A stretch of 64,000 nucleotides of DNA from GCF_053078305.1 NZ_CP166879.1; one strand, 5' to 3'; counted from the stretch's first letter, positions 35,914 through 56,213 are shown. The notes: generated from the sequence alone by a model not told the origin. Program-made: numbers and translations.

Positions 35914-37460
35914 CAGGCTTCCTCCCCTTTGCAGATAAATTCACGCGCCAGCAATCCGGTATTGGTGCTGCTGCTCGCCAGAATCACTCCGGCATCAAGC
36001 AGCATCTGGCTTTGTTGTTCTAACGATGGCGTATCAAGATCGGTACCCAGCACATAGGCGAGAATGATCAACTCGCGTCCTTCGGCAGCGGCGATCGCTT
36101 TCGCTTCTTTGATCGCCTCGATGGTGGAGCCGACCGGATCTTCATGCGATCCAAATCCGAGCACAAAATCCATCACGATCACCGCCACTTCTGGATCGCG
36201 CGCCTCTTCGATCAAGCGACTGATGCGGTTGGTGGGGTCAATCATTGGATGCGGCTTGCCGTTGGTGAAGTCGTCATCGCCAAAGTCGAGGAAGGTGTGT
36301 TTGATGCTGCGGTTGATATCTTTCAGGCGGAATTCCGGATCGGGCTGAATGTTGCTGTAGACATCGCCATGTTTTTCCATCACCGCGAACATGGTTTCGT
36401 CGCACAACGTGCCGCCGCAGAACAGGCCACGAATGTATTTCTGCTGCGGTTGCAGACGCGCACGCACATCCGCAATCAACGGCTGGTTAAGCGTATGCAG
36501 GTCGAGATTTTCCTGTTTCACGCCGGAGAGCATCACCGCTTTTAGCGCCGCTTCTTTGGTGCCGCGAGCAAACTGTAGCCCCTGCTCGTCAACCGGCGTT
36601 TCGCCACGACCGAGGAAGCAGACCACCACCGGCTTGCGGCAGGCGCGGGCGCGTTCCAGCACTTTACGGGCCACCGCAGGCGCGGGAGGTTTTGAAATCA
36701 GCGCGATAATTTCAGTTTGCGGATCGTTTTCCAGCATCCCGATGGCGTCGAGCATCATCAGGCCGCCGATTTTCTCGCTCAGGTCGCGCCCGCCGGTGCC
36801 GATGAGTTGCGAAACGCCGCCACCAAATTCATGAATGCGGACGCTCAGCTCCTGGCTGCCGGTGCCGGATGCGCCAACAATACCGATGTTGCCGCGACGC
36901 ACGGCATTACCAAAACAGAGCGCCGCGCCGTTGATAATCGCCGTGCCACAGTCTGGCCCCATCATCAGCAGCCCTTTTTCGTGGGCCAACTGTTTGAGCG
37001 CCAGTTCATCTTCAACCGAGACGTTATCGGAAAACAGCATCACGTTAAGATCGTTTTGCAGCGCCTGACGCGCTTCGCGCGCGGCAAACAGACCGTTGAC
37101 CGAAATCACCGCCAGGTTACTTTCCGGGATATGCTTTTTGGCGCTGGCAATAGTGGCGTAACGCGCCTCGTGCGAGCCGCTTTGCGCTTTGGTGTTGAAC
37201 AGTTCTTCAATCTCCACCAGCAACTGCTCGTTGTCCGCCCCCGATTTACCATTGATGACAATCATCAGGTCGCCGTTTTTCGCCTGCTCCAGCTCCGGCG
37301 TCAGCAGTCCTAAATTTTTCAGCACACCTTTGTTCATTTCGGTCGCCATCGCCACAAATGCCTGCTCGACGCCGTCGAGTTTATTTGCACGCGTGGAGAT
37401 AGACATCAGCGAGACAGAATCAAAATAGGTATTCGGTTTAATGACTATTTTAACTGACAT
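35913..37460 (-). CDS. yahF: FdrA-like acyl-CoA synthetase (NDP-forming) family protein
   Basis: 515 aa; CoA-ligase/succinyl-CoA synthetase-like fold. Confidence 0.88.
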   Translation of the reverse strand: MSVKIVIKPNTYFDSVSLMSISTRANKLDGVEQAFVAMATEMNKGVLKNLGLLTPELEQAKNGDLMIVINGKSGADNEQLLVEIEELFNTKAQSGSHEARYATIASAKKHIPESNLAVISVNGLFAAREARQALQNDLNVMLFSDNVSVEDELALKQLAHEKGLLMMGPDCGTAIINGAALCFGNAVRRGNIGIVGASGTGSQELSVRIHEFGGGVSQLIGTGGRDLSEKIGGLMMLDAIGMLENDPQTEIIALISKPPAPAVARKVLERARACRKPVVVCFLGRGETPVDEQGLQFARGTKEAALKAVMLSGVKQENLDLHTLNQPLIADVRARLQPQQKYIRGLFCGGTLCDETMFAVMEKHGDVYSNIQPDPEFRLKDINRSIKHTFLDFGDDDFTNGKPHPMIDPTNRISRLIEEARDPEVAVIVMDFVLGFGSHEDPVGSTIEAIKEAKAIAAAEGRELIILAYVLGTDLDTPSLEQQSQMLLDAGVILASSSTNTGLLAREFICKGEEA

Positions 37461-38313
37461 AATTCCCTCCGTAGGTTTGGCTCAGCGCACAACCATCGGC
37501 CATGCCATACAGCATGTCGCAGCCGGAACTGGAGCCAATATGTTTAATTTTTTCTATTGCCTGAGTTGCGTTCCCAGGGATGTCATAAATAATGTTGTGA
37601 ATAAAACGATGAATATTTTCCCGGCAGCGTTGTTGTAATGCGGCTTCCAGCGTTATGGCACTTAATAACGTGGTATTATTTCTGCCGCGTTGCAAGCCGA
37701 GATAAAATTCCTCTTTGTATTTTCCCGCCGGATGCCCGGAAATAAATAAAATAAGTGCCAGACCTGTTAAATAATCATCGGCTGATGGCGTAAGGCCAAT
37801 CCCTAAGCCCATCATACTGGCGACCGCTGAGGCGATATTTTGTTTATCGATTACTGCCTGTATAACTGCCCGTCGTTTAATATGTAATTCTTTATTTAAC
37901 GCCTGATAAAACGGATTATCGCCGCGATAATTAAACAGGGTTTCATTTTCCCCCAGGTGCTGATGAATGATGTCGTGCCACTGTTGCCAGGCGATAAGGC
38001 GAAAATTCACAGCGGTCATTTGCAAGGTTGGGGACAGCCAACGCCGACAACGACTCATCTCTATATGAAGATGTTGACCAACCGTAATACCTTGATCGTC
38101 AAACTGAACCTTATCACCATGCCGGAACAGATCATCAAAGTGAGTGAGTGCCAACCGACAACTGTTTGGCGCATTGTCGTACTCTTCACAAAGCAGCGTC
38201 AGCAACTGCTGGCGAGCCGGGAGTGCGATATTTACCGCTCTGGCAAAGACCTGTTCAACCTGTCCTTGCCCCCGCTGCGCCAGAAAATCCGCATCCGCAG
38301 TTAGCGCCCACAC
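37450..38313 (-). CDS. yahE: DUF2877-family protein (YlbF paralogue)
   Basis: 287 aa; overlaps the yahF start. Confidence 0.85.
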   Translation of the reverse strand: MWALTADADFLAQRGQGQVEQVFARAVNIALPARQQLLTLLCEEYDNAPNSCRLALTHFDDLFRHGDKVQFDDQGITVGQHLHIEMSRCRRWLSPTLQMTAVNFRLIAWQQWHDIIHQHLGENETLFNYRGDNPFYQALNKELHIKRRAVIQAVIDKQNIASAVASMMGLGIGLTPSADDYLTGLALILFISGHPAGKYKEEFYLGLQRGRNNTTLLSAITLEAALQQRCRENIHRFIHNIIYDIPGNATQAIEKIKHIGSSSGCDMLYGMADGCALSQTYGGNYVS

Positions 38314-38352
38314 ACACCGTTTTTCAGGTGTGTTGATAGCAAGCCTCCCGGT

Positions 38353-38958
38353 TTATGCACCTGCGGCAATCAGTAACTGCGCAATCTCTTCAAAGCCCCG
38401 TTCCCGCGCCAGTTCCAGCGGCGTTTTGCCATATTTATCCGTCATGTGCGGGCTGGCCCCGTGTTCCAGCAATAACTGCACAATCGCCTGCTGTTTAATC
38501 CCGCCATCATTAAGCACAATCGCTTCCAGCAGCGGCGTCCAGCCTACATGGTTGGTCTGGTTAACGTTAATTTCCGTATGCGCCAAAAGCTCTTTTACAA
38601 TACTTAAATGGCCTTTTTCACAGGCAGGCGTCAGGCCGACACCGCCAAAACGGGTTACGCAATTAAGATCGGGTTTAGCCGGTAAAATAATTCGTAGTAG
38701 CGTTAAATCATCGTTCAGACAGCTAATTAAAAAAGGATTTAAACAGGTATGATCTTGCTTATTAATATCCGCTCCGGCGTCAATTAATGCCTGAACGCAA
38801 GCATATTGCTGATATAAACTTGCCAGCGTAATTGCCGTTTTCCCCTGACGATCGTAGGTATTAATATCGACACCCAGCGCAAGGCAGGTTTTTACTTTAT
38901 CGATATCACCCTGTTGTGCAGCCAATAAATAGTCGGCAGGTAGATTTTTTATACTCAT
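38353..38958 (-). CDS. yahD: Ankyrin-repeat protein
   Basis: 201 aa with repeated ankyrin motifs (GKTPLELA, GWTPLLEAI, GADINKQD). Confidence 0.9.
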   Translation of the reverse strand: MSIKNLPADYLLAAQQGDIDKVKTCLALGVDINTYDRQGKTAITLASLYQQYACVQALIDAGADINKQDHTCLNPFLISCLNDDLTLLRIILPAKPDLNCVTRFGGVGLTPACEKGHLSIVKELLAHTEINVNQTNHVGWTPLLEAIVLNDGGIKQQAIVQLLLEHGASPHMTDKYGKTPLELARERGFEEIAQLLIAAGA

Positions 38959-39215
38959 TCACATTCCCCTGGTTTTTGTGGCTGTTTTCGATGAATTGAG
39001 AATAGCAACGATAATCTGATAAAAGAACCCGCTTAAATTTAATTCGCCGTATTTCGCCTTTTTGTTGAATGATGTTCAACAATCTTTTCGCAGTGTGCGG
39101 TAGTGCAATATTTGTTTCTTTGACCCGATACCCTTTCACTCAATCAGGTTTTATTTCTCTATAGTCTGCACATGTAAGAGTAGCTTTCGTCCATGTCTAA
39201 CCAGAGGGGAACAAG

Positions 39216-39713
39216 ATGAACGGACTCACGGCAACGGGTGTCACCGTCGGTATTTGTGCAGGGCTTTGGCAGTTAGTGTCTTCACATGTCGGGCTCTCTC
39301 AGGGATGGGAATTATTAGGAACCATTGGCTTCGTCGCCTTTTGCAGTTTTTATGCCGCAGGCGGCGGTAAATCGGGGTTTATCAGAAGTCTGGCGGTTAA
39401 TTATTCCGGGATGGTGTGGGCGTTTTTCGCCGCGCTGGCTGCTGGTTGGCTGGCCTCTGTAAGTGGACTGTCCGCGTTCTGGGCGAGCGTAATTACTACC
39501 GTACCCTTCTCGGCGGTGGTGGTCTGGCAAGGGCGTTTCTGGTTACTGTCATTTATTCCCGGTGGCTTTCTCGGCATGACGCTGTTTTTTGCCAGCGGGA
39601 TGAACTGGACGGTGACATTACTGGGTTTTCTGGCGGGTAACTGCGTGGGGATAATTTCAGAATATGGTGGACAAAAATTAAGCGAAGCGACGACTAAACG
39701 CGACGGGTATTAA
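39216..39713 (+). CDS. yahC: Inner membrane protein
   Basis: 165 aa multi-pass hydrophobic ORF. Confidence 0.85.
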   Translation: MNGLTATGVTVGICAGLWQLVSSHVGLSQGWELLGTIGFVAFCSFYAAGGGKSGFIRSLAVNYSGMVWAFFAALAAGWLASVSGLSAFWASVITTVPFSAVVVWQGRFWLLSFIPGGFLGMTLFFASGMNWTVTLLGFLAGNCVGIISEYGGQKLSEATTKRDGY

Positions 39714-39804
39714 AAGTTATTCAAAAATGATTATCTATCTTTAACCGATACCTCTACAGTCATAGCTGGAGAAATTCATAGTAGATAATGGCGGGAATGG
39801 TTTA

Positions 39805-40737
39805 ATGAACTCAATTTTTACCGAAGAGAATCTGTTGGCATTTACTACCGCTGCGCGTTTTGGCAGTTTCAGTAAAGCCGCAGAAGAGTTGGGTTTAACC
39901 ACTTCCGCCATTAGCTACACCATCAAGCGAATGGAAACAGGGCTGGATGTGGTGCTGTTCACTCGCAGTACCCGAAGCATTGAGTTAACGGAGTCCGGAC
40001 GTTATTTTTTCCGCAAAGCTACCGACCTGCTGAATGATTTTCACGCCATCAAACGTAGCATTGATACTATTTCGCAGGGCATAGAAGCACGGGTTCGCAT
40101 TTGTATTAACCAGCTACTTTATACGCCTAAACACACCGCGCGCTTATTGCAGATACTGAAAAAGCAATTTCCTACCTGCCAGATTACCGTCACCACCGAA
40201 GTGTATAACGGCGTCTGGGATGCGATTATTAATAATCAGGCGAATATCGCTATTGGCGCGCCCGACACGCTGCTGGACGGCGGCGGCATTGATTACACGG
40301 AGATTGGCGCGATTCGCTGGGCCTTTGCCATCGCCCCGGATCACCCATTAGCCTATGTGCCGGAGCCGATCGCCGAAAGCCAGCTGCGTCTCTACCCTAA
40401 TATCATGGTGGAGGACACCGCGCATACGATTAATAAAAAAGTGGGCTGGTTGCTGCATGGGCAGGAGTCAATTCTGGTGCCAGATTTCAACACCAAATGT
40501 CAGTGCCAGATTTTAGGTGAAGGGATTGGTTTTTTGCCGGATTACATGGTCCGTGAGGCGATGACGCAATCCCTGCTGGTTACCCGACAAATTCATAATC
40601 CGCGCCAGGATTCGCGCATGTTACTGGCGACTCAGCATTCTGCTACGGGTCAGGTGACGCAGTGGATTAAAAAACAATTTGCGCCAAATGGCATATTGAC
40701 GGGGATCTATCAGGATTTACTGCATCGGGAGAATTAA
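39805..40737 (+). CDS. yahB: LysR-family transcriptional regulator
   Basis: 310 aa; N-terminal LysR HTH (FTTAARFGSFSKAAEELGLTTSAISYTIKRME). Confidence 0.9.
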   Translation: MNSIFTEENLLAFTTAARFGSFSKAAEELGLTTSAISYTIKRMETGLDVVLFTRSTRSIELTESGRYFFRKATDLLNDFHAIKRSIDTISQGIEARVRICINQLLYTPKHTARLLQILKKQFPTCQITVTTEVYNGVWDAIINNQANIAIGAPDTLLDGGGIDYTEIGAIRWAFAIAPDHPLAYVPEPIAESQLRLYPNIMVEDTAHTINKKVGWLLHGQESILVPDFNTKCQCQILGEGIGFLPDYMVREAMTQSLLVTRQIHNPRQDSRMLLATQHSATGQVTQWIKKQFAPNGILTGIYQDLLHREN

Positions 40738-40778
40738 TCGCTGCCAACCTCCCGATGCGCTGTGAATAGCGGTTTACA

Positions 40779-41876
40779 TCAACCACCTGCTTTCATTACC
40801 CATTCAGAGATAAATTTATTACCCGGTACTGGCGGAGAGTACAAATAGCCCTGCAAAAAGTGAACGCCTTTACCGATCATTAAATCCGCCTGCTCCTGGG
40901 TTTCTACCCCTTCCGCCACGATACTCAGACCAGGCTTACGCGCCAGTTCGACAATATTGTCGACAATATGACCGGATATTTCGTCGACACTCGCCATTTG
41001 CACAAATGACTTATCGATCTTAATAAAATCGACCGGAAACGCCTGCAGATAACGATAGGTCGCATAACCCGTACCAAAGTCATCCAGTGCAAAGGTAATG
41101 TTGTGCTGATGAAGGCTGTCAAATATCGCTCTGGCTTCTGGCGTTACCGGAATAGGGTTACGTTCCGTTAGCTCGAGAACCAGTTTGATTTTATCGTTTC
41201 CTAATTTCTTGACCAGGTTCAGGCATTCTTTTTCAAATCCCGCGGCCAAAAAACAACCCGCCGAGACGTTGATACCAATATGGAAATTATCAGGCAGCAA
41301 ATGTTTTACCGGCATCAGAATATCCGCAGTCTGTTTCATCAGTTGGCGGGTCATTATGACAATAAGACCGGATGACTCCGCCAGAGGAATAAACTGATCC
41401 GGTGGGATAATTCCCGTTTGTGGATGTTCCCAGCGGACAAGCACCTCACAGCCCGTCAGTACCCCAGTCTGCGCGCAGAAAACCGGTTGGATCCACGGTT
41501 TGAATTCGTGGTTTTCCAACGCCAGACTGATGGCTTCAGGCGTGACGATATGGTGACAACGGTTATCAGGGATATAAAAATTATTTTTATTTCCCGTGCC
41601 ACTGATGACTTGCGGATGATATTGAAAAAAGATATCCCGCCAGAAGGTAATATCACTCTGGATGCCTAGTTTTTCATACAGCTGCTTCTTTTGATGTGAA
41701 ATTGTCTTTGCACTGCGATTTCTGTACTGTGAGATTTCTGTAACCGACATTCCCTCCATTAGCAGCTTGAGTAAAAGCCGTTCTTTTTCGGACACGATAC
41801 CAGGCAACGTCAAATTCACCGTTGCCCCGAACTCTTCCAAAAAAACACTCAAATCATGCGAAGCCATTGAACACAC
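40779..41876 (-). CDS. pdeL: c-di-GMP phosphodiesterase PdeL (LuxR-type HTH plus EAL domain)
   Basis: N-terminal LuxR HTH (LLMEGMSVTEISQYRNRSAKTISHQKKQLYEKLG), C-terminal EAL domain (ELTE..., DDFGTGYA); start may be a few codons internal. Confidence 0.92.
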   Translation of the reverse strand: MCSMASHDLSVFLEEFGATVNLTLPGIVSEKERLLLKLLMEGMSVTEISQYRNRSAKTISHQKKQLYEKLGIQSDITFWRDIFFQYHPQVISGTGNKNNFYIPDNRCHHIVTPEAISLALENHEFKPWIQPVFCAQTGVLTGCEVLVRWEHPQTGIIPPDQFIPLAESSGLIVIMTRQLMKQTADILMPVKHLLPDNFHIGINVSAGCFLAAGFEKECLNLVKKLGNDKIKLVLELTERNPIPVTPEARAIFDSLHQHNITFALDDFGTGYATYRYLQAFPVDFIKIDKSFVQMASVDEISGHIVDNIVELARKPGLSIVAEGVETQEQADLMIGKGVHFLQGYLYSPPVPGNKFISEWVMKAGG

Positions 41877-41954
41877 CTTGATTAAATCTTGTGCGCCAGC
41901 TAAATCTGCGAGTCTTCACTCTGACGGATAAAGCTGGCTGCAAGAAAATGACAC

Positions 41955-41986
41955 AGAGAGCCGAATTATCTCCCGTTCGGCTCTCT
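41955..41986 (-). terminator. Stem-loop downstream of the autotransporter gene
   Basis: Perfect 11-bp inverted repeat agagagccgaa / ttcggctctct with 10-nt loop, directly after the ehaA-type stop; flanking runs are only moderately T-rich. Confidence 0.5.
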
Positions 41987-42008
41987 ATCCTTTTACTCAT
42001 TATTCAGA

Positions 42009-45000
42009 TCAGAATTGCCACTTAATGCCAACCATTGCAGAGGTGTCATTATATCCCCTATCGGCAACCTGAACGCCCACATTCCCCCAGACATTCAGGT
42101 TGGCATTTAGCTGTCCTTCCACCCCGGTTTTTATCTCAGCAATATTTCGGGCTCCATCCTGAGTGACGGACACGCCATCCATACTGGTGCTGAAATCCTT
42201 ACTGTTATGCAGCCAGTTCACTTCTACAAACGGCTGGAACTCGCGGGATTTACCGTCATCCATTTTATGGTGGCTCTTCAGCCAGTTTTTTACGCCAAGT
42301 CGGGTTTGAACATTGCCATCACCGTTGCTATGAACGAGGGTTCCGTTGCTTTCGCGGTGCTTATCAGCTTTGACTCCCATCCAGGTAACCTGTGCTTGCG
42401 GCTGAACATACCATTCATTACGCGTTCCCTGGCTGCCATTAAATTCAGCTAATTTGTGTTTGTATCCAGCTTCCAGTGAAGCGGTAAGTCCTTTTGATTT
42501 ATAGGATTCACTTTGTAAGTCATCCCCTTTCACTGTGTTATCAAACCAGCTGTACTGCGCCCAACTGTCGAGATACGCGCCATTACGCGACTCGTCATCG
42601 GCATACCAGGTGGCATAGAGGCCTGTGCTATATCCGTTCACACTCGCTTTTGCACGATAACCGGTTCGCGAGGAAATGGTTTTGCTGTCGCTGTTGCCAT
42701 ATCCCGCCATGACCCCAACATGCCAGCTGTCGCTGCCGTTTTGGCTCCACTGCGCGACATCGCCTCCCAGTTGCAGAACATAGCGATTGCTTTGGGTTTT
42801 CAGCTGGCCGCTGCCATCACGCCATTTATTATGACCACCTTCATGGCGCATCCACATAGTGGTTTGTTTCTGCTCACCCGTCACCATGTCGGTATAGTAC
42901 GTATTACCCAGACGCTCATGCAGACGCGTGGTGAACATGGTATTCGCTGCTGCAAGGTTCGCAATGTAGCTACCCGCCTCCGGTCGCAGGTCATTATCCA
43001 CATTCAGATCCGGACCCGGCGTAGGTGTCGGGTTAGGGTTCGGCTCTGGATTCGGGTTTGGCTCCGGATTCGGCATCGGGTCTGGCTCCGGCTGCAGTTC
43101 AGGAGAATCACTGCCGCTGGTCAGATACCAGTTACCACTATTTGCCCCTTGTCCACGCGCGAGAGTGTAGTCATACGCCCCCGCAACGATACGCCCAGCC
43201 TGAACAAATTCGCCCTCAGACTTACCGTCTACATGGATAAGTTCGATACCGTTAAGGGTTTTCGCACCTGTACCGCCAGCGTTATTCACCGTAACGGCAG
43301 TCGTGCCGCTGGTATCGCCCTCGACAACCAATTTATCGGTTACTGAGTCATCGCCATTCAGTACCGTATTCATTACTAGTTGACCGTTATTACCGTGGTA
43401 GTTCCCCTTCACCACTAACACATTGCCAGCTTGCTGTCCTGACATTCCGGTCATCAGCGTACCGTTGTTGGTCAGATTGCCGCCCAGGGTGTAATTCACA
43501 GACGCAGCCGCTCTTTTTTCAGCGCTATTATTCAACGCCAGGGTACCGTTGTTCTCAACGTTTGCGCTACCCAATCCCTGCGCATGACTTACCAGGACAT
43601 TAGCCGAATTAGCAATGTTCACATTCGCCGTCAGGTTGCTGTTATCGCCCGCGATGTCCAGCGTGCCGCCCTGAATATTCAGCTCTCCGCTCCCCGTTAA
43701 CGAACCGGTTGAAGTGCCCCCGTTGGTAACCGTCAGACTGCCGCCATTTAAGCTCAGCAGTGAATCGGCGCTGCCATTGAGCGTGCCCACGGTCTGGCTG
43801 TGACCATTCATATCCAGTTCAGTCTCTGCCGCCAGACGCAGTTCATGGGTATTACCCAACACGTTATCGTTATTCAACAAAAGCGTCCCACTGCGCAGAT
43901 CGGTAACACCGGTATAGTCGTTGTCTTTGTTAGAAAGCGATACGGTCTGACCCTTCTGGCTGCTGAATGCCAGGTCACCACTGCCGGTAATCTTTGCGCT
44001 GAGATCGGCGGCATTCTCGCTTTTACCGTTAGAGCTCAGCACCAGAGCATCGCTGTCGGTAGCGTGTAAATCAAGCTGGGTCAGGCCGTAACCGATATAC
44101 AGACCGTCATTGTTTACCCCACTCGTCAGACGATAGTCGTAAGTGCCGACGGCCGCTTTTTGCCCATTCTGCTGAATATCACGTTGGGCGCTGCTGGAGA
44201 GGATTTGCCCATTTTTATCCTGCAATTGCAGATTGCCCGCATCGCCCAGAACTTCCGCACCTTGCGCATCAACCAACTTAATGGTGCTGTTACCATCATC
44301 GACTTCAGTGAGCGATAACGCAGAGTCAATATCACGAGATACTGAGCTTACAACGTCACTGTCAGAAACCTGAATCACACCCTCGCCGCGCAAATCCAGC
44401 GTTTTACTAACGTTGACCGTCCCTTCTGTCATCTGTGCACCTGCTGTCAGGGCACCAAAATCAACGGTTCCGCCGGAGAATCCCAAAGTGCTAATAGAAT
44501 GAGCGCCCTTACCCACTGTTACCTGGCTTCCCTGACCCGCAGTGATCCCGCCTCTCTGCAGAAACTCAGCATTCTTTTCCAGGTTAAATGCCGTGTTCTG
44601 GAACGCCAGTGAACCCTGGAACCAGTCTGTATAAGCAAACTCATCGAAGGAGAATTCGTGATTCCCCATGTTTATTTCAACAATGCCTCTACCTTCAAGA
44701 TCGTTATCAAATACCCAATCTTTGTTGGCATTAATTTGCAATTTGCCATCAACATCCAGCTCTGCACGACCGATATTCTTGTCTTCAGAAATAACAGCGA
44801 CAGCACCAGAAGCAACATCAATATATCCGCTGAATGCATAGTTATTGCCGGTCAACTCCACCGTCCCACTGTCGATACTTATTGTACCGTTGCCAGAGAT
44901 CTTATTGGCAAAGGTCATGCTATCGTCAGCCTTCAGGTGTAATTTCCCGCGGTTGGTGATCTCTGCTGTACCTATATTTTGGGTGATCCCTAAAGCGCCA

Positions 45001-45992
45001 TTTTGCTCAATTTTGACTTTACCACTAAAGGCAGAGTTATCCCCGGTTAAGTAAGTCGTGCCATTGAGCGCATTGATATAGCCTAGGCCCTCGCTGCCAC
45101 TGACAATATCCGCGGAAATAGTCGCGTCTTTATCCGTGTGGTTTAAGGTGATTTTCTTATCGGATGTCGAAGCCCACACAAACTCAATTTTTTCGGCATC
45201 AATAATCCCTGCCGCCTTCGCAGCACTTCCTTCCTGTGCACCTAACGCTAACTCAGAGTTGGTGCTTAAACTAATTTTCGGTGCGGATATTTTACCTCCA
45301 TCTGATACGACTAATGTTGTATCAGAACGTTGGTCGTAATAACCCAGGCTAATATGTTCACGAGCATTAACTTCACCACCGTTATTAACCGACAGGAACT
45401 GATTACCGCCATATCCGCCGTAAACGCCCATAAAGAAGGTCCCGGCATTTACCTGACTACCTTCGCCGCTTACATTCCCCTGCGTATAAGTCAGACGACT
45501 GGTGCCCTTAACATGAATTTTGCCGCCGTTGGAGACATTAAAATAGCCTTGATCATGTCTCATGCCTGAGTTTGACTCATACAAATCATCAGCATATAAC
45601 TCGCTGCCAGCATTGGAGACATTCAGGAAGCCCGTACCTTTCAGCAAAAAGTTAAGTGGGCCATTGATTGTTACCTTTCCTCCGGTAATATCCAACCCAC
45701 CACCAGACGCGAGAGTCAGACGCGGACGGGAAGTATCTGTCGCATTGATTACCAGATTGGCATTGTCTGTCACCGTAATACGGTAATCGATGCTCTGGTT
45801 CTCTTTGCCAAAATCAATAGTTTTATCCTGGTTTACGATGACATCATCGGCGAATACCAGAGATGAATATAAACTTATCGCGCTAATTAAAACAGCCCGG
45901 GACTTTTTTCCTTTTACTCTGCTCCCCAGCTCCGAGCAGACGCTCCAACAGTTACGGGACCTGTTCCACTTTAGCCGATATATTTTATTCAT
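42009..45992 (-). CDS. ehaA: AIDA-I-type autotransporter adhesin (EhaA-like)
   Basis: 1327 aa from ATG 45992; extended signal peptide MNKIYRLKWNRSRNCWSVCSELGSRV; Gly/Asn/Thr-rich passenger; proline-rich linker PEPDPMPNPEPNPNPEPNPNPTPTPGP; C-terminal beta-barrel ending ...GIKWQF. No gene lies between pdeL and betT in K-12. Confidence 0.8.
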   Translation of the reverse strand: MNKIYRLKWNRSRNCWSVCSELGSRVKGKKSRAVLISAISLYSSLVFADDVIVNQDKTIDFGKENQSIDYRITVTDNANLVINATDTSRPRLTLASGGGLDITGGKVTINGPLNFLLKGTGFLNVSNAGSELYADDLYESNSGMRHDQGYFNVSNGGKIHVKGTSRLTYTQGNVSGEGSQVNAGTFFMGVYGGYGGNQFLSVNNGGEVNAREHISLGYYDQRSDTTLVVSDGGKISAPKISLSTNSELALGAQEGSAAKAAGIIDAEKIEFVWASTSDKKITLNHTDKDATISADIVSGSEGLGYINALNGTTYLTGDNSAFSGKVKIEQNGALGITQNIGTAEITNRGKLHLKADDSMTFANKISGNGTISIDSGTVELTGNNYAFSGYIDVASGAVAVISEDKNIGRAELDVDGKLQINANKDWVFDNDLEGRGIVEINMGNHEFSFDEFAYTDWFQGSLAFQNTAFNLEKNAEFLQRGGITAGQGSQVTVGKGAHSISTLGFSGGTVDFGALTAGAQMTEGTVNVSKTLDLRGEGVIQVSDSDVVSSVSRDIDSALSLTEVDDGNSTIKLVDAQGAEVLGDAGNLQLQDKNGQILSSSAQRDIQQNGQKAAVGTYDYRLTSGVNNDGLYIGYGLTQLDLHATDSDALVLSSNGKSENAADLSAKITGSGDLAFSSQKGQTVSLSNKDNDYTGVTDLRSGTLLLNNDNVLGNTHELRLAAETELDMNGHSQTVGTLNGSADSLLSLNGGSLTVTNGGTSTGSLTGSGELNIQGGTLDIAGDNSNLTANVNIANSANVLVSHAQGLGSANVENNGTLALNNSAEKRAAASVNYTLGGNLTNNGTLMTGMSGQQAGNVLVVKGNYHGNNGQLVMNTVLNGDDSVTDKLVVEGDTSGTTAVTVNNAGGTGAKTLNGIELIHVDGKSEGEFVQAGRIVAGAYDYTLARGQGANSGNWYLTSGSDSPELQPEPDPMPNPEPNPNPEPNPNPTPTPGPDLNVDNDLRPEAGSYIANLAAANTMFTTRLHERLGNTYYTDMVTGEQKQTTMWMRHEGGHNKWRDGSGQLKTQSNRYVLQLGGDVAQWSQNGSDSWHVGVMAGYGNSDSKTISSRTGYRAKASVNGYSTGLYATWYADDESRNGAYLDSWAQYSWFDNTVKGDDLQSESYKSKGLTASLEAGYKHKLAEFNGSQGTRNEWYVQPQAQVTWMGVKADKHRESNGTLVHSNGDGNVQTRLGVKNWLKSHHKMDDGKSREFQPFVEVNWLHNSKDFSTSMDGVSVTQDGARNIAEIKTGVEGQLNANLNVWGNVGVQVADRGYNDTSAMVGIKWQF

Positions 45993-46523
45993 CACAATCT
46001 CCAGCAATACATCCAAATAAAACCAAGATTGCATAAACAGCAACGCATTAAATGCCATTCCGGTTACTGTTCATCGCATATAAAAATTCAAAAATTTTGC
46101 ATAGCATTGGCAACCACATATCTGAGTATGTAGTTCAGAGGGTAATAAAATAGCAAGTTACTACTGAAAACTTATTTTAAGTTAACACTCTTAACTTTAT
46201 CATTACATTCCCCCCCAGTCTCTAATACCTGCGCATTATATGTATCCGGGAACTCAAATCAACTCAAAATATAAACAAAAGCAGGAGAAATACATTTAAT
46301 ATACAGCCGGTAAAAGTGGTAACTCTTATTAGGTATACAAATATAAGAATCGTCTTATTAATAAATATATAACTCTATAGGACTGAATCCATTCAGCTAA
46401 TACAAAATAAAATCGTTAATTAATAAAATATAAAATCATGAAGTGATACAAGAGGAATTTCAGGATATGACATGACAATCATATATAATATATGCATAAT
46501 TTTTTACAGCGAGTCAATGATTC

Positions 46524-46556
46524 CCGCGCCATATGCAAACATGGCGCGGTTTTATG
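46524..46556 (+). terminator. Rho-independent terminator-like hairpin next to the betT 3' end
   Basis: ccgcgccat-atgcaaac-atggcgcgg (9-bp GC-rich stem) followed by ttttatg. Confidence 0.55.
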
Positions 46557-46565
46557 CAATAACAA

Positions 46566-48599
46566 TCACGCGTCCGGGAACATCACGCTATGGCCCGGCG
46601 CTTCACGATGGAGATGAATAAAGTTAAGGTGCCGCTCGTACTGGTCAAGAATATCGGTGATCACCTGCTCTTTGCTGTAGTCCATCAGGTCGTTGCCCTG
46701 GCTGCCTTCTAACAGGAAAGTTTCCAGCCGGTAGTAAGTCGATTTACCGCTACGTGCGCGGTAGGTAAAGCCCGGCACCGAATATTGCTGCGGCCAAATC
46801 TGATAGACAAAGTTTTGCTCTTCGCCCATATGCACCAACAAATCCAGATGCCCCAACTGTTGTCCCTCTTCCGGCGGCAGGCTTTTTAGCTCCACGTACG
46901 CGCCGCGCAACCGCAACTCCTGCGCCACTTCTTCCATTGCCGGGTAACAGACCGTCTCCATCATCTGTTTAGTGTAACGCGTGCCCGGATAATTCATCAG
47001 GCGCGAGAGACGTTTTTTCCAGCTCAGGCGATCCTGAAGCCCCAGCGGTCGCGGTGCGGTATCGCGGTTGGCACTTTCACGGCGGTAATCTTCTACCTTC
47101 AGAGATTTATACAACCCCGCCATCACGAAGAAGATCACAAAGCTGAACGGCAGCCCCATAATCACCGTGGTGTTTTGCAGCGCGGATATCCCGTTGGTCA
47201 TCAGCATGCCGAGCGTCAGCAGGCCAATCGCCACCGACCAGAAGACGCGCAGCCAGCCGGGGGCGTCGCTGTTGATATCTTTAAGCTGCGAGGTGAAATT
47301 CCCCAGCACCAGCGCCCCGGAGTCCGCCGAGGTCACATAAAACAGCAGGCCAGTAATGGTGGCGACGGAGGCGCTAAAGGTAAACGCCGGATACTGCGCC
47401 AGCAGGCTGTAGAAGCCGCGCTCCGGATGGACCATCGCTTCCTCGGCAAATGCCGCGCCGCCGTGGATGATTTCATACAGCGCGCTATTGCCGAACACCG
47501 AGAGCCATAACAGCGTGAAGGTAAACGGAATAATCAACGTGCCCAGCACGAACTGGCGAATGGTACGCCCACGCGAGATACGCGCCAGGAACAAGCCGAC
47601 AAACGGCGACCATGCCACCCACCATGCCCAGAAGAAGAGCGTCCAGTTATTCATCCACTCAACTGGACGGTCGAAGGCAAAACTGTTGAGCGTCATGCCC
47701 ATAAAGCGATTCACATAGTCGCCAACATTCAGCACCAGTGCATTAAGCAGGAACGAAGTGTCGCCCATAAACAACACGAACAGGATCAATCCCAGCGCCA
47801 GCGCGACATTAAGCTCCGATAACACGCGAATGCCCTTATCGACACCGGATGTCACCGAGATAGTGGCGATTATCACCGACAAGGCGATCAGTGCCGCTTT
47901 TGCCGCCATCGAATCGGGAATATCAAACAGTACGCTCAAGCCATAGTTAAGCTGCACCACACCGATACCGAGCGTAGTGGCAATACCGAAGATAGTGCCG
48001 ATCACCGCTGCAATATCCACTGAGTGACCTATCGGCCCGTTAATCCGTTTACCGAAGATCGGGTACAGCGCCGAGCGGATGGTGAGCGGCAAATTATAAC
48101 GATAGCTAAAGTATCCGAGCGCCATGCCCATCAGCGCATACATCGACCAGCCGGTTAAGCCGTAGTGAAACAGCGTCCAGACCATCGCCTGACGCGCGGC
48201 CTCAATCGTCTGTCCCGCGCCTTCCGGCGGCTGCATATACTGCGTTACCGGTTCGGCTACGGAAAAGAACATCAGATCGATACCGATCCCGGCAGCAAAC
48301 AGCATCGCCGCCCAACTCAGCAGGCTGAATTCCGGTTTGGATTGTTCTGGCCCGAGCTTCACCGAACCAAAACGCGAACAAGCGATACAGACCACAAAGA
48401 CAATATAGAGCGTTGCCGCCAGCAGATAGTACCAACCGAAGGTTTTAGAAACCCAGTCCAGCGTGCGGCCAATCCACAGGGCCGAGAAGTCGCGAAACAG
48501 GATCGTTGTCAGGGAAAACAACAAAATCAGTCCGGCGGAGGTGTAAAACACCACCGGATTGATTTTGTCCTTTTCCCTGCTGTGTGAAAGGTCTGTCAT
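46566..48599 (-). CDS. betT: Choline transporter (BCCT family)
   Basis: 677 aa; MTDLSHSREKDKINPVVFYTSAGLILLFSLTTILF... Confidence 0.97.
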   Translation of the reverse strand: MTDLSHSREKDKINPVVFYTSAGLILLFSLTTILFRDFSALWIGRTLDWVSKTFGWYYLLAATLYIVFVVCIACSRFGSVKLGPEQSKPEFSLLSWAAMLFAAGIGIDLMFFSVAEPVTQYMQPPEGAGQTIEAARQAMVWTLFHYGLTGWSMYALMGMALGYFSYRYNLPLTIRSALYPIFGKRINGPIGHSVDIAAVIGTIFGIATTLGIGVVQLNYGLSVLFDIPDSMAAKAALIALSVIIATISVTSGVDKGIRVLSELNVALALGLILFVLFMGDTSFLLNALVLNVGDYVNRFMGMTLNSFAFDRPVEWMNNWTLFFWAWWVAWSPFVGLFLARISRGRTIRQFVLGTLIIPFTFTLLWLSVFGNSALYEIIHGGAAFAEEAMVHPERGFYSLLAQYPAFTFSASVATITGLLFYVTSADSGALVLGNFTSQLKDINSDAPGWLRVFWSVAIGLLTLGMLMTNGISALQNTTVIMGLPFSFVIFFVMAGLYKSLKVEDYRRESANRDTAPRPLGLQDRLSWKKRLSRLMNYPGTRYTKQMMETVCYPAMEEVAQELRLRGAYVELKSLPPEEGQQLGHLDLLVHMGEEQNFVYQIWPQQYSVPGFTYRARSGKSTYYRLETFLLEGSQGNDLMDYSKEQVITDILDQYERHLNFIHLHREAPGHSVMFPDA

Positions 48600-48727
48600 C
48601 CAGTATCCCCACTGTTATTGTTACCATTTAAAATCAAATTCGTAACAATTAAGACACATTTTATATTGAACGTCCAATCAATAACCGCTTTAATAGATAA
48701 ACAACGCTGATGAATGGAGTGGCGAAA

Positions 48728-49315
48728 ATGCCCAAATTGGGGATGCAGTCGATCCGGCGCAGACAACTGATCGACGCCACACTGGAAGCAATAAATGAAG
48801 TGGGCATGCACGATGCAACGATCGCGCAGATCGCCAGCCGTGCAGGCGTTTCTACGGGGATCATCAGCCACTATTTCAGGGACAAAAATGGTCTGCTGGA
48901 AGCAACCATGCGCGATATCACCAGTCAGCTGCGTGACGCGGTTTTGAATCGATTACATGCACTTCCGCAGGGCAGTGCAGAGCAGCGATTACAGGCGATT
49001 GTTGGCGGAAACTTCGATGAAACGCAGGTGAGCAGTGCGGCGATGAAAGCCTGGCTGGCGTTCTGGGCCAGCAGTATGCATCAGCCGATGCTCTATCGTT
49101 TACAGCAGGTCAGCAGCCGCCGCTTGCTGTCGAATCTGGTGAGCGAGTTTCGCCGCGAATTGCCGCGCCACCAGGCACAGGAAGCGGGCTACGGCCTTGC
49201 CGCGCTGATTGACGGATTATGGCTGCGCGCGGCACTGAGCGGCAAACCGCTGGATAAACCTCTCGCACACTCGCTGACCCGTCACTTTATTACTCAGCAT
49301 TTACCCACCGATTAA
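48728..49315 (+). CDS. betI: TetR-family repressor of bet genes
   Basis: [36 protein letters not shown]...; divergent from betT. Confidence 0.95.
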
Positions 49316-49328
49316 CCGAGGAGACGTG

Positions 49329-50801
49329 ATGTCCCGAATGGCAGAACAGCAGCTTTATATACATGGTGGTTATACCTCCGCCACCAGCGGTCGCACCTTC
49401 GAGACCATTAACCCGGCCAACGGTAACGTGCTGGCGACCGTGCAGGCCGCCGGGCGTGAGGATGTCGATCGCGCCGTGAAGAGTGCCCAACAGGGGCAAA
49501 AAATCTGGGCGGCGATGACCGCGATGGAACGCTCGCGTATTCTGCGTCGGGCCGTTGATATTCTGCGTGAACGCAATGACGAACTCGCAAAACTGGAAAC
49601 CCTCGACACCGGAAAAGCATATTCGGAAACCTCAACCGTCGATATCGTTACCGGTGCGGACGTGCTGGAGTACTACGCCGGGCTGATCCCGGCGCTGGAA
49701 GGCAGCCAGATCCCGTTGCGTGAGACGTCATTTGTTTATACCCGCCGCGAACCGCTGGGCGTGGTGGCGGGGATTGGCGCATGGAACTACCCGATCCAGA
49801 TTGCCCTGTGGAAATCCGCCCCGGCGCTGGCGGCAGGCAACGCAATGATTTTCAAACCGAGCGAAGTCACCCCGCTTACCGCGTTAAAGCTGGCTGAAAT
49901 TTACAGCGAAGCGGGCCTGCCGGACGGCGTATTTAACGTGTTGCCGGGCGTGGGCGCGGAGACCGGGCAATATCTGACCGAGCATCCGGGCATTGCCAAA
50001 GTGTCATTTACCGGCGGTGTCGCCAGCGGCAAAAAAGTGATGGCTAACTCGGCGGCCTCTTCCCTGAAAGAAGTGACCATGGAACTGGGCGGTAAATCAC
50101 CGCTGATCGTTTTCGATGATGCGGATCTCGATCTCGCCGCAGATATCGCCATGATGGCAAACTTCTTCAGCTCCGGTCAGGTGTGTACCAATGGCACCCG
50201 CGTCTTCGTTCCGGCGAAATGCAAAGCCGCATTTGAGCAGAAAATTCTGGCGCGCGTTGAGCGCATTCGCGCGGGCGACGTTTTCGATCCGCAAACTAAC
50301 TTCGGCCCGCTGGTCAGCTTCCCGCATCGCGATAACGTGCTGCGCTATATCGCCAAAGGCAAAGAGGAAGGCGCGCGCGTACTGTGCGGCGGCGATGTAC
50401 TGAAAGGCGATGGCCTCGATAACGGCGCATGGGTCGCGCCGACTGTGTTCACCGATTGCAGCGACGAAATGACCATTGTGCGCGAAGAGATCTTCGGGCC
50501 GGTGATGTCCATTCTGACCTACGAGTCGGAAGAGGAAGTCATTCGCCGCGCTAACGATACCGACTACAGCCTGGCGGCGGGCATCGTGACGGCGGACCTG
50601 AACCGCGCGCATCGCGTCATTCATCAGCTGGAAGCGGGTATTTGCTGGATCAACACCTGGGGCGAATCCCCGGCAGAGATGCCCGTTGGCGGCTACAAAC
50701 ACTCCGGCATTGGTCGCGAGAACGGCGTGATGACGCTCCAGAGTTACACCCAGGTGAAGTCCATCCAGGTTGAGATGGCTAAATTCCAGTCCATATTCTA
50801 A
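49329..50801 (+). CDS. betB: Betaine aldehyde dehydrogenase
   Basis: [32 protein letters not shown]...; ALDH motifs ([18 protein letters not shown]). Confidence 0.97.
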
Positions 50802-50814
50802 CCAGGAGGTTTAT

Positions 50815-52503
50815 TTGCAATTTGACTACATCATTATTGGTGCCGGCTCAGCCGGCAACGTTCTCGCTACCCGTCTGACTGAAGATCCGAATACCTCCGT
50901 GCTGCTGCTTGAAGCGGGCGGCCCGGACTATCGCTTTGACTTCCGCACCCAGATGCCCGCTGCCCTGGCATTCCCGCTACAGGGTAAACGCTACAACTGG
51001 GCTTACGAGACGGAACCTGAACCGTTTATGAATAACCGTCGCATGGAGTGCGGACGCGGTAAAGGCCTGGGTGGATCGTCGCTGATCAACGGCATGTGCT
51101 ACATCCGTGGCAACGCGATGGATCTCGACAACTGGGCAAAAGAACCCGGTCTGGAGAACTGGAGCTATCTCGATTGCCTGCCCTACTACCGCAAGGCCGA
51201 GACCCGCGACGTGGGCGAGAACGACTACCACGGCGGCGACGGCCTGGTGAGCGTCACCACCTCCAAACCCGGCGTCAATCCGCTGTTTGAAGCGATGATT
51301 GAAGCGGGCGTGCAGGCGGGCTACCCGCGCACGGACGATCTCAACGGTTATCAGCAGGAAGGTTTTGGTCCGATGGATCGCACCGTCACGCCGCAGGGCC
51401 GTCGCGCCAGCACCGCGCGTGGCTATCTCGATCAGGCCAAATCGCGTCCTAACCTGACCATTCGTACTCACGCTATGACCGATCACATCATTTTTGACGG
51501 CAAACGCGCGGTGGGCGTCGAGTGGCAGGAAGGCGACAGCACCATTCCAACCCGCGCGACAGCGAATAAAGAGGTGCTGTTATGTGCAGGTGCGATCGCC
51601 TCTCCGCAGATCCTGCAACGTTCCGGCGTGGGTAGCGCTGAACTGCTGGCGGAGTTTGATATTCCGCTGGTGCATGATTTACCCGGCGTCGGCGAAAATC
51701 TTCAGGATCACCTGGAGATGTACCTGCAATATGAGTGCAAAGAACCGGTTTCCCTCTACCCTGCCCTGCAGTGGTGGAATCAGCCGAAAATCGGTGCGGA
51801 GTGGCTGTTTGGCGGCACCGGCGTTGGTGCCAGCAACCACTTTGAAGCAGGCGGATTTATTCGCAGCCGAGAGGAATTTGCGTGGCCGAATATTCAGTAC
51901 CATTTCCTGCCAGTAGCGATTAACTATAACGGCTCGAATGCAGTGAAAGAGCACGGCTTCCAGTGCCACGTCGGATCGATGCGCTCGCCAAGCCGTGGGC
52001 ATGTGCGGATTAAATCCCGCGACCCGCACCAGCATCCGGCGATTCTGTTTAACTACATGTCGCACGAGCAGGACTGGCAGGAGTTCCGCGACGCAATTCG
52101 CATCACCCGCGAGATCATGCATCAACCGGCGCTGGATCAGTATCGTGGCCGCGAAATCAGCCCCGGCACGGAATGTCAGACGGATGAGCAGCTCGATGAG
52201 TTCGTGCGTAATCACGCCGAAACCGCGTTTCATCCGTGCGGTACCTGCAAAATGGGCTACGACGAGATGTCCGTGGTTGACGGCGAAGGCCGCGTGCATG
52301 GGCTGGAAGGCCTGCGCGTGGTGGATGCGTCAATTATACCGCAGATTATCACCGGGAATTTGAACGCCACGACAATTATGATTGGCGAGAAAATAGCGGA
52401 CATGATTCGTGGACAGGAAGCGTTGCCGAGGAGCACGGCGGGATATTTTGTGGCAAATGGGATGCCGGTGAGAGCGAAAAAAATGAGTCGTGATTTGAAC
52501 TGA
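50815..52503 (+). CDS. betA: Choline dehydrogenase (GMC oxidoreductase)
   Basis: ...[23 protein letters not shown]...; AGGAGG at 50804-50809 positions a TTG codon at 50815; the in-frame ATG at 50770 lies inside betB. Confidence 0.93.
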
Positions 52504-53569: not shown

Positions 53570-54133
53570 ATGACGAGAAAATATCTCACACAGGATGAAG
53601 TCTACAGGCTGATGGATGCAGCCCAGAGCATGTCCTTTCCTGAAAGAAATCGCTGTCTAATTATGATGGCTTTCATTCACGGTTTTAGGGCCAGTGAACT
53701 TCTTGATTTACGTTTATCCGATATTGATGCATCAGGAAAACAACTTAATATTCGGCGTATTAAAAATGGTTTCTCGACGACACATCCTCTTCTTCCTGAT
53801 GAATATAATTTGATCAAGTTGTGGCTTAAGCAGAGGAAGTTAATTGAAAACGGAGTTGAAGGAGACTGGCTTTTTCTCTCCCGGAAACGCCGCCCTATCA
53901 GCAGACAACATTTTTTTTCTATCATTCGTGAGGCTGGAAAACGTGCAGGATTAGCTGTAAAAGCACATCCTCATATGTTACGTCATGCCTGTGGTTTTGC
54001 TCTGGCTGACAATGGTGTCGATACCCGACTACTCCAGGATTATCTGGGTCATCGAAATATCCAGCATACTGTCAGATACACAGCCAGTAATGCTGCTCGA
54101 TTTAAAGGGGTGTGGAAAAAAAAACCTCGTTAA
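53570..54133 (+). CDS. FimB/FimE-family tyrosine site-specific recombinase
   Basis: 187 aa; strong similarity to remembered FimB/FimE blocks (FIHGFRASE, FSTTHPLL, HPHMLRHACGFALADNGVDTRLLQDYLGHRNIQHTVRYTASNAARF); preceded by ~760 bp of AT-rich ORF-free DNA. Possibly ipuA-like. Confidence 0.88.
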   Translation: MTRKYLTQDEVYRLMDAAQSMSFPERNRCLIMMAFIHGFRASELLDLRLSDIDASGKQLNIRRIKNGFSTTHPLLPDEYNLIKLWLKQRKLIENGVEGDWLFLSRKRRPISRQHFFSIIREAGKRAGLAVKAHPHMLRHACGFALADNGVDTRLLQDYLGHRNIQHTVRYTASNAARFKGVWKKKPR

Positions 54134-54462: not shown

Positions 54463-55257
54463 ATGAAGAAGCCTCTGGTTATTATCAGTGCCTGTCAGTT
54501 CACCAGGCTGGCACTGGAGTCTCTCATCCCAGCGGACAGGTATATCGTGCGGGTGTACAGCAACGTCACTACAGAGGTTGAATTCGTTTTAAAAACCTCC
54601 TGTGGCTACCTGTTGGCTGATATCCCTTCGCTTCCTTCGGGGGAGTTAGTTCTTCTGGCTTGTCTTGTCCGCTTGCGGAGTGATGCCGGGCAATGGCAGG
54701 TCTGCCTGACCGGTGACTCCGACTGGTCCGATAATGCTCCTGCTGCAAGTCTGTATAACGGCTTCCCACATATCGGCACCATGCTGACAGCGAGTCGTTA
54801 TCAGAATCAAATTATCCGCTGGTTACTACGTCCTTTACCCGGCGATATGAGTGATTTCTGGCTCCTGACTGCACGGGAGTTAAGCGTGCTTAAGATTCTG
54901 ATGCAGGGCATGAGTTTCAGTGAGATTGCCCGTTATGAACAACGCAGTTCAAAGACCCTGCATGCGATTGCCACACGGGCTTTAATGAAACTTGGACTGG
55001 GAACACTGAGCGATTTCAGGCTGCTCTATACGGGATGCGGTGACAGCAGAGTGAAACGGAATATACGGCTACATGCAAAATATATCGGACAACATTCCGC
55101 TCATCGACTCACTCAGTATGTGCAGAACATGGTATCCGGAATCCTTTATCCAGAGAAAGTTGCCGTTGGTGAATCAATAAATTCTGACGCCATTTCCGGA
55201 AAAGTACTTTCCGGACAAAGAAAAAATATATCTAAAAAAAGACCAGGATTGTTATGA
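54463..55257 (+). CDS. LuxR-type HTH transcriptional regulator
   Basis: 264 aa; HTH LTARELSVLKILMQGMSFSEIARYEQRSSKTLHAIATRALMKLG; starts 40 bp after the right inverted repeat. Possibly ipuR-like. Confidence 0.8.
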   Translation: MKKPLVIISACQFTRLALESLIPADRYIVRVYSNVTTEVEFVLKTSCGYLLADIPSLPSGELVLLACLVRLRSDAGQWQVCLTGDSDWSDNAPAASLYNGFPHIGTMLTASRYQNQIIRWLLRPLPGDMSDFWLLTARELSVLKILMQGMSFSEIARYEQRSSKTLHAIATRALMKLGLGTLSDFRLLYTGCGDSRVKRNIRLHAKYIGQHSAHRLTQYVQNMVSGILYPEKVAVGESINSDAISGKVLSGQRKNISKKRPGLL

Positions 55258-56172: not shown

Positions 56173-56213
56173 GTGGGAAATTGAAATTAGTTACCAGAAT
56201 GGAGAATTTCTTC

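Follow-up and report, generated by a model that had tools for sequence, protein, structure and literature searches.

The 64,000-nucleotide stretch of NZ_CP166879.1 (GCF_053078305.1) analysed here, hereafter the window, carries at positions 42009-46565 on the minus strand a gene that we identify with high confidence as ehaA, the single gene of O-island 15 (OI-15), also named S-loop 24. It is present as an intact, slightly unusual allele in a non-K-12 Escherichia coli chromosome and encodes a type Va autotransporter adhesin. The match to EhaA, the RefSeq naming and the OI-15 locus together mean that the gene finding is itself already known: ehaA/OI-15 has been known since 2008, it is named automatically by RefSeq, and the present copy lies at its usual position. 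What is new beyond the known gene is a correction of the empty-site and island picture of this locus, evidence for an ancestral ehaA haplotype, and a testable link between ehaA and the PdeL switch. We tentatively propose, as a possibility rather than a probability, that ehaA, where it is present (about one quarter of E. coli), heads a Cra- and PdeL-activated, H-NS-silenced ehaA-pdeL unit; that the K-12 pdeL promoter is the same promoter after loss of ehaA in a divergent lineage; that this loss haplotype was spread by recombination; and that OI-15 is ancestral.

Identity and extent of the ehaA locus

From its length and its position next to betT, the original prediction had likened the gene to EhaA of O157:H7 (Z0402/ECs_0362; Wells et al. 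2008), and the comparison bears this out. Aligned with ECs_0362 of O157:H7 Sakai, the protein is identical at 1304 of 1327 residues (98.3%) with 0 gaps, far from the low identity that would speak against the match. Both proteins are 1327 aa long with the same domain order, and both genes lie at a betT-ehaA-pdeL locus behind a 573-bp upstream region. The betT-ehaA-pdeL-yahB region is collinear with that of Sakai over 9.8 kb (98.25% nucleotide identity), and the RefSeq-annotated ehaA of strain ES5 is 99.9% identical to the window gene at the nucleotide level.

The gene is also widespread. Of 5426 complete E. coli genomes searched by megablast with positions 41800-46700, 5189 have the flanks and 1385 of these the whole ehaA segment, annotated as 'ehaA: autotransporter adhesin EhaA' together with betT and pdeL. 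The ehaA open reading frame (ORF) is covered to at least 80% in 1388 of the 5426 genomes; matches in about 1400 genomes have 95-100% identity, and 58 of 60 sampled rows among the matches listed bear the RefSeq name 'autotransporter adhesin EhaA'. An intact gene of 4 kb that recurs in about 1400 genomes owes nothing to chance. The published OI-15 of EDL933 is a 4643-bp segment (379203-383845) with the single ORF ehaA/z0402 (PMC8565820), and the same locus is named S-loop 24 in Sakai, where it is called 'selectively acquired' (PMC2323221). The window block at 41883-46525 is 4643 bp long, exactly the published length. The elements of the locus are as follows.

42009-45992, minus strand: ehaA coding sequence, 1327 codons plus stop, frame intact on translation
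45993-46058, minus strand: 22-codon in-frame extension upstream of ehaA, starting with the ATG at 46058; probably an untranslated leader
40779-41867, minus strand: pdeL, whose product is a cyclic di-GMP (c-di-GMP) phosphodiesterase that is also a transcription factor; same strand as ehaA and 141 bp downstream of it
41538-41882, minus strand: divergent 5' part of pdeL travelling with ehaA, 70-90% identical to K-12 as against 96-100% elsewhere
41883-46525, no strand assigned: block without a megablast-level counterpart in K-12 (blastn against MG1655), 4643 bp, corresponding to OI-15 of EDL933
46524-46549, minus strand: betT terminator hairpin, containing the upstream junction of the variable block

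The ORF list of the window gives a 1349-aa frame at 42009-46058 (minus strand), whose translation, MAFNALLFMQSWFYLDVLLEIV-MNKIYRLKWNRSRNCWSVCSELG..., consists of the extension followed by the internal-ATG form; from the internal ATG at 45992 the product is the 1327-aa protein beginning MNKIYRLKWNRSRNCW. This ATG is preceded by GGAG at a 6-nt spacing, and no Shine-Dalgarno sequence lies at the proper distance from the ATG at 46058 (context aaccggaATG). The RefSeq ehaA start is MNKIYRLKW in all annotated records fetched, and the alignment with the model of the extended signal peptide (ESPR) begins at residue 1 of the 1327-aa form. Translation probably starts at 45992, with the extension left untranslated as had been suggested. 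The frame is open over 42009-45992 and the expected domains are matched, so the 1327-aa AIDA-I-type autotransporter that had been claimed is present and intact, with no disruption of its reading frame.

The neighbouring betT, a 677-aa ORF at 46566-48599 (minus strand; NCBIfam NF007399, 1314.8 bits), ends at 46566 and the ehaA stop lies at 42009; the span 42009-46565 therefore comprises ehaA plus the entire betT-ehaA spacer. BetT, BetI and BetB are encoded on the betT side, and the EAL/LuxR-type helix-turn-helix (HTH) protein PdeL, then YahB, on the opposite side. The ORF list gives the pdeL neighbour as a 365-aa frame at 40779-41876 (minus strand), pdeL itself being 362 aa from 41867. The spacer 45993-46565 (573 bp) has a G+C content of 31.6%, in line with the AT-rich upstream region noted earlier, compared with 49.7% for the ehaA ORF and 50.8% for the window.

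K-12 is without ehaA between betT and pdeL, and to this extent the original description of the position as empty in K-12 stands, but the site itself is filled. The MG1655 betT-pdeL spacer is 874 bp long, includes the small gene yahV, and matches the window only in its first 40 bp (the betT terminator) and its last 14 bp; the remainder is about 820 bp of unrelated AT-rich sequence (33.9% G+C) with yahV and the pdeL promoter. A spacer of this K-12 type occurs in 3656 genomes. The divergence continues into pdeL, whose first ~330 nt are 70-90% identical between the window and K-12, whereas identity is 96-100% over the remainder of pdeL and in the genes on either side. At the protein level, 23 of the 24 differences between the two PdeL sequences fall in residues 1-105, in the extreme N-terminus and the HTH-EAL linker, and 1 in the remaining 257 residues; this N-terminal divergence is the reason why RefSeq renames the PdeL of ehaA-positive genomes 'EAL domain-containing protein'. 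With a divergent 5' part of pdeL adjoining a non-alignable block, the two haplotypes differ over approximately 41538-46525, and the ~820 bp of different sequence in K-12 makes this a replacement polymorphism that includes the first ~330 nt of pdeL. Functional work on PdeL has all been done with the K-12 allele.

The upstream region and a possible ehaA-pdeL unit

The upstream regions of ehaA and of K-12 pdeL can be related to each other. Megablast is blind inside the block, and the shared motifs are seen only by word-7 blastn and MAFFT, which reveal two sharply conserved islands within otherwise ~50%-diverged AT-rich DNA. These islands, and a hairpin between ehaA and pdeL, are located as follows.

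46381-46397, minus strand: Cra-box-like palindrome GCTGAATGGATTCAGTC, a perfect match to RSTGAAWCSNTHHW on the plus strand
46235-46262, minus strand: sigma-70 promoter-like site TTGATT-N16-TATAAT, matching 10 of 12 consensus positions, the best such site in the region
41955-41986, minus strand: 12-13 bp hairpin 23 nt past the ehaA stop, a candidate weak or leaky terminator

Within the first island, ACTGAATCCATTCA at 46382-46395 agrees with 0 mismatches with RSTGAAWCSNTHHW, the Cra operator consensus reportedly given by Ramseier et al. 1995. The site matches TGAAWCGWTTCA at 11 of 12 positions and is the only near-consensus site both in the 64-kb window and in the 14-kb K-12 locus. The identical 17-mer occurs upstream of K-12 pdeL, once per ehaA-positive locus, in E. 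whittamii and in three of four ehaA-negative loci; in the remaining ehaA-negative strain one base at the edge of the box is substituted. Since it alone matches the consensus, we infer that the 17-mer is the published K-12 Cra site. The second island, the promoter block AGTTGAT(T/C)TG..TT....AT.CATATAATGCGC, is invariant in ehaA-positive E. coli, in E. whittamii and upstream of pdeL in K-12 and Nissle; it gives a predicted transcription start near 46228 and a leader of ~236 nt. Apart from that one substitution, both islands are invariant across five ehaA-positive E. coli, E. whittamii and four ehaA-negative E. coli, and their mutual spacing is kept to ~4 bp. E. albertii keeps the promoter block, and its contig ends before the position of the Cra box. 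An Rfam scan of 38000-50000 at a permissive threshold found no known RNA element in the 573-bp upstream region.

The AT-rich pdeL (yahA) promoter region of K-12 (PdeL boxes CDB/CIB; bioRxiv 10.1101/2021.10.01.462762) therefore resembles the equally AT-rich DNA before ehaA in its identical 17-nt Cra-box match and in a near-identical -35/-10 block at a spacing within ~4 bp. It differs in that the motifs in the window precede ehaA, with pdeL 4.1 kb further downstream, and in that the surrounding sequence is only ~50% alike. The K-12 region has been described as containing a Cra site that overlaps a PdeL box, a distal PdeL box and H-NS sites; pdeL is activated there by Cra and PdeL, silenced by H-NS and off at high c-di-GMP, which results in a bistable switch (bioRxiv 10.1101/2021.10.01.462762; PMC5052742).

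The homology suggests that ehaA is likewise under Cra/PdeL/H-NS control. Transcription of ehaA would start near 46228 from TTGATT-N16-TATAAT, ~160 bp downstream of the Cra box. Because these elements are homologous to those upstream of K-12 pdeL, ehaA would probably be silent in rich laboratory culture and switched on together with pdeL. H-NS control is plausible by analogy with the H-NS-silenced K-12 promoter, and a promoter controlled by Cra, PdeL and H-NS would explain the AT-rich region upstream of ehaA.

Two further observations concern the same DNA. The K-12 gene yahV has 24 codons, and its stop end overlaps the Cra-box 17-mer (MG1655 331802-331888); in the coordinates of the extracted K-12 locus, yahV lies at 7803-7877 and the 17-mer at 7873-7889. 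The ehaA haplotype has no yahV counterpart. Also, a 14-nt inverted repeat (13 of 14 positions complementary) is formed by TATATTTTATTAAT at 46419-46432 and the first ehaA codons, ATGAATAAAATATA at 45979-45992. The TATATTTTATTAAT arm lies ~440 nt upstream of ehaA, and a similar ATATTTTATT is conserved upstream of K-12 pdeL. The repeat could be a chance feature of AT-rich DNA or a binding or looping site.

Whether the proposed promoter also serves pdeL depends on the 141-bp ehaA-pdeL spacer. Neither a consensus scan of its minus strand nor inspection by eye revealed a promoter-like site for pdeL. The hairpin in the spacer has a stem of ~-20 kcal/mol. E. coli, E. whittamii and E. albertii all keep this stem unchanged while the loop varies, also where ehaA is degraded. 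The U-tract does not start until 6 nt past the stem, so the hairpin is not a canonical intrinsic terminator, and its candidate roles are those of a terminator, an RNA 3'-end stabiliser or a processing site. A match of the same hairpin to a miRNA family (Rfam, E 0.61) was rejected as a chance match. Judging from the sequence, pdeL may be co-transcribed with ehaA, in which case it would be at least partly expressed by read-through from the ehaA promoter.

An alternative, which we regard as rather unlikely, is that the Cra box and promoter are relics and that ehaA and pdeL are separate units, with the hairpin at 41955-41986 terminating transcription, pdeL using its own promoter, and ehaA escaping Cra and PdeL control. 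The stability of the stem and its conservation across three species would fit such a picture, as would the long distance from the Cra box to the predicted ehaA start, and a literature search turned up no paper linking ehaA with pdeL/yahA or Cra, the original 2008 EhaA paper lying outside that search. Against it, 17 nt and ~30 nt kept exactly within ~50%-diverged AT-rich DNA argue for selection on both haplotypes. The spacer also lacks a sigma-70-like site on its minus strand, and the U-tract is detached from the hairpin stem. Moreover, PdeL is reported to act positively on its own gene through boxes next to the Cra site (bioRxiv 10.1101/2021.10.01.462762), and in ehaA-positive strains that site precedes ehaA. 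For the proposed ehaA-pdeL unit itself, two points must be counted on the other side: the Cra box, ~160 bp upstream of the predicted start, lies at a long distance for an activator acting directly, and the conserved hairpin could be an effective terminator, so that pdeL would need a promoter of its own that was not recognised.

If the ehaA-pdeL unit is real, the bistable, c-di-GMP-sensing PdeL switch would drive heterogeneous adhesin expression in enterohaemorrhagic E. coli (EHEC) and other wild strains, and adhesin expression would be tied to gluconeogenic (Cra-active), low-c-di-GMP conditions. This would offer an explanation for the regulation of an EHEC colonisation adhesin. It is also a candidate answer to the question, raised by the authors of the PdeL work, whether PdeL controls more than its own gene (bioRxiv 10.1101/2021.10.01.462762).

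Origin of the ehaA haplotype

The original prediction described the locus as an island between pdeL and betT, and here the description, taken to mean an insertion, finds no support. No tRNA gene was found in 36000-52000, there are no flanking repeats at 41883/46525, and the ehaA locus has no integrase, insertion sequence (IS) element or mobility genes, its neighbours being core genes. The G+C content of the ehaA ORF is near the window value, and AT-richness is confined to the non-coding upstream DNA, as it is in the K-12 counterpart. The features that would mark a horizontally acquired island, namely an integration signature, a cargo of deviant composition and absence from sister species, are all missing.

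The sister species are informative in this respect. A scan of one genome per prokaryotic species for ehaA homologues returned a full-length orthologue in E. whittamii (92% aa identity), in the order Cra box, promoter, ehaA, pdeL, yahB, yahC; in E. albertii it returned a degraded ehaA, flanked by this promoter region and pdeL. The two parts of pdeL tell different histories. Over nt 1-330, the identity of ehaA-positive E. coli is 92% with E. whittamii and 89% with E. albertii, as against 80% with the K-12 type, and K-12-type alleles are ~79-80% identical to all others. From nt 331 onward, identity within E. coli is 96-99%, falling to 93-94% for E. whittamii and 82-83% for E. albertii, in keeping with the species tree.

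Taken together, the tandem in the outgroups, the grouping of the pdeL 5' segment and the missing island signatures make an ancestral ehaA the simplest reading. With moderate confidence, we consider the betT-ehaA-pdeL order to be an old, vertically inherited Escherichia arrangement, and the K-12-type haplotype without ehaA to be a later replacement. The K-12-type segment would have arrived by homologous recombination, its two ends falling in the betT terminator and within pdeL. With the same moderate confidence, this ancestral reading is the reverse of the customary account, in which OI-15 was acquired as an island (PMC2323221). The ancestral-state argument is tempered by its being based on two outgroup species only; the K-12 type could also have become the outlier without import, by diverging quickly once a deletion had occurred.

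The conventional account, which treats OI-15 as a pathogen-associated island that EHEC and related lineages gained horizontally, by insertion into a K-12-like, empty betT-pdeL spacer, appears improbable to us. It would account for the absence of ehaA from K-12, for its listing as the O157-specific, 'selectively acquired' OI-15/S-loop 24, for its presence in only 1388 of 5426 complete genomes and for the AT-rich flank. Yet the empty target that it presupposes is missing, since K-12 has ~820 bp of its own at the site; tRNA, integrase, IS element and flanking direct repeats are lacking; and the ORF composition is close to that of the window. It also leaves the ehaA-pdeL tandem of E. whittamii, and its degraded form in E. 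albertii, to be explained, together with a pdeL 5' segment that groups ehaA-positive strains with those two species while the K-12 type is equidistant (~80%). An ancestral ehaA haplotype covers these observations, and it carries a general caution: an O-island delimited by its absence from K-12 can represent ancestral sequence that K-12 has lost.

EhaA-like paralogues occur in Trabulsiella, Citrobacter, Yokenella and Leminorella, with no PdeL, BetT or YahB homologue within flanks of up to 3 kb on each side. Since pdeL is absent from these flanks outside Escherichia, the coupling of the autotransporter to pdeL is specific to the genus. In E. whittamii (NZ_JACSQI010000015.1), a 66-bp remnant of the betT terminator lies upstream of ehaA, and other ORFs stand where betT is expected; the bet operon seems to be missing or to have moved in this species. 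One match was set aside: the 5.1-kb contig JAIJJM010000200.1 ('MAG: Collinsella sp.', Actinomycetota, a metagenome-assembled genome), 98.8% identical to ehaA-pdeL, is almost certainly a mis-binned E. coli contig.

Protein architecture, allelic variation and a neighbouring autotransporter

A type Va precursor crosses the inner membrane through Sec, guided by its signal peptide; the C-terminal ~330 residues, an alpha-helix and a 12-strand barrel, are put into the outer membrane by the β-barrel assembly machinery (BAM), and the passenger is exported C-terminus first, through or alongside the barrel. The autochaperone nucleates folding of the passenger into a beta-helix, which proceeds outward from the autochaperone, and the passenger stays on the cell surface. 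The 1327-aa protein has the corresponding parts: a signal peptide, an autochaperone-bearing passenger, and a 12-strand barrel with a helical linker.

45846-45992, minus strand: ESPR-type extended signal peptide (aa 1-49); Pfam PF13018 over residues 1-38, E 9.6e-10
43113-45845, minus strand: passenger (aa 50-960), the secreted adhesive part, with weak PATR repeats; function from the EhaA literature
45093-45692, minus strand: hypervariable passenger stretch (nt 301-900, aa 101-300), from the clustering of differences from Sakai
43161-43478, minus strand: type 1 autochaperone (aa 839-944); Pfam PF18883 (AC_1), E 3.6e-28; IcsA autochaperone 3ML3, E 1.3e-28
43008-43112, minus strand: proline-rich linker (aa 961-995), PELQPEPDPMPNPEPNPNPEPNPNPTPTPGP
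42012-42992, minus strand: alpha-helical linker and 12-strand beta-barrel translocator (aa 1001-1327); 4MEE, PF03797, TIGR01414

The Pfam run, made on two overlapping pieces of the protein, recovers the extended signal peptide, and the proline-rich linker is found at aa 961-995, both as read from the sequence beforehand; a low-complexity Pfam match covers aa 963-999. Cleavage of the signal peptide after SLVFA is inferred by eye. The N-terminal 730 aa give PATR matches only, all weak, and aa 734-966 match the IcsA passenger structure 5KE1 (E 2.2e-27). The region aa 1001-1327 matches the AIDA-I beta-domain (PDB 4MEE, E 2.7e-92), with PF03797 at aa 1046-1305 (E 7e-46) and TIGR01414 at 412.7 bits against a cut-off of 16. 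By this layout, the ESPR would direct EhaA to Sec and the barrel would be handed to BAM, after which the passenger (aa 50-960) would emerge, with the autochaperone (aa 839-944) starting its folding.

Several relatives share parts of this architecture. AIDA-I of diffuse-adhering E. coli has the same type Va layout, an ESPR signal peptide, and a linker and barrel that align with 4MEE; its passenger sequence is unrelated to that of EhaA. AIDA-I proper (NF033176) scores 340.5 bits against a cut-off of 1200, with only aa 1001-1327 aligned, and the aah heptosyltransferase gene of the AIDA-I type is not found next to ehaA, whose neighbours are betT and pdeL. IcsA/VirG of Shigella has an autochaperone and C-terminal passenger homologous to those of EhaA (3ML3, 5KE1), and both IcsA/VirG and the MisL/ShdA group differ from EhaA in their N-terminal passengers and host targets. 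The AIDA-I, MisL, ShdA, YfaL and ECSE_1600 models of NCBIfam match only the C-terminal third, far below their cut-offs, which places the protein in the AIDA-I-type group as none of those named proteins. On the side of caution, no EhaA-specific NCBIfam model scores above its cut-off, and the naming as EhaA consequently rests on pairwise identity to the O157:H7 protein. That the gene is instead another AIDA-I-family member (AIDA-I, YfaL/EhaC, MisL/ShdA-like or the ECSE_1600 family), as C-terminal matches of 763, 510, 340 and 232 bits might suggest, has practically no likelihood, since the curated cut-offs are far higher (2335, 1297, 1200 and 1459 bits), the matches are limited to the translocator or autochaperone region, and the full-length 98.3% match is with EhaA. 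EhaA has been grouped phylogenetically with IcsA and MisL/ShdA as 'Group 8' autotransporter adhesins (PMC9289746).

By analogy with its O157:H7 orthologue, the window allele would function in surface adhesion. The passages of PMC8565820 and PMC9289746 that cite Wells 2008 and Yin 2009 attribute to O157:H7 EhaA a surface location, aggregation, biofilm formation and adhesion to bovine terminal-rectum epithelial cells. Sources with passages citing the same two papers, PMC8565820 among them, report less adherence of an ehaA deletion mutant in pig ileal loops. The EhaA beta-domain is also a standard tool for surface display.

The window allele is of a rare type: of the 1424 records that match it, 10 reach 99% identity or more, most being at 97-99%. 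Its differences from Sakai are concentrated in the hypervariable stretch, where 60 of 84 nucleotide and 14 of 23 amino-acid differences fall, the 14 lying at passenger aa 148-278. The same nt 301-900 segment is also the most divergent in comparisons with the alleles of 042, O104:H4 and EC21Z-147, and its divergence there is close to the distance to E. whittamii. This would be the usual pattern for an exposed adhesin tip, produced by mosaic recombination or diversifying selection. In some genomes ehaA is broken by IS1, IS3, IS5 or an internal stop, whereas the window copy is intact.

A second intact autotransporter gene, hyxB, lies ~10 kb from ehaA at 56181-58511 on the plus strand and encodes a protein of 765-776 aa with a TIGR01414 beta-barrel. 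It sits downstream of the tyrosine invertase gene ipbA/fimX, hyxR and hyxA (segments 53570-54133, 54463-55257 and 55411-56172). Strain ES5, 99.9% identical around ehaA, has only a 498-bp adhesin fragment annotated at the hyxB position. The hyxB sequence is found in 1566 genomes, and hyxB is the RefSeq name among the matches listed.

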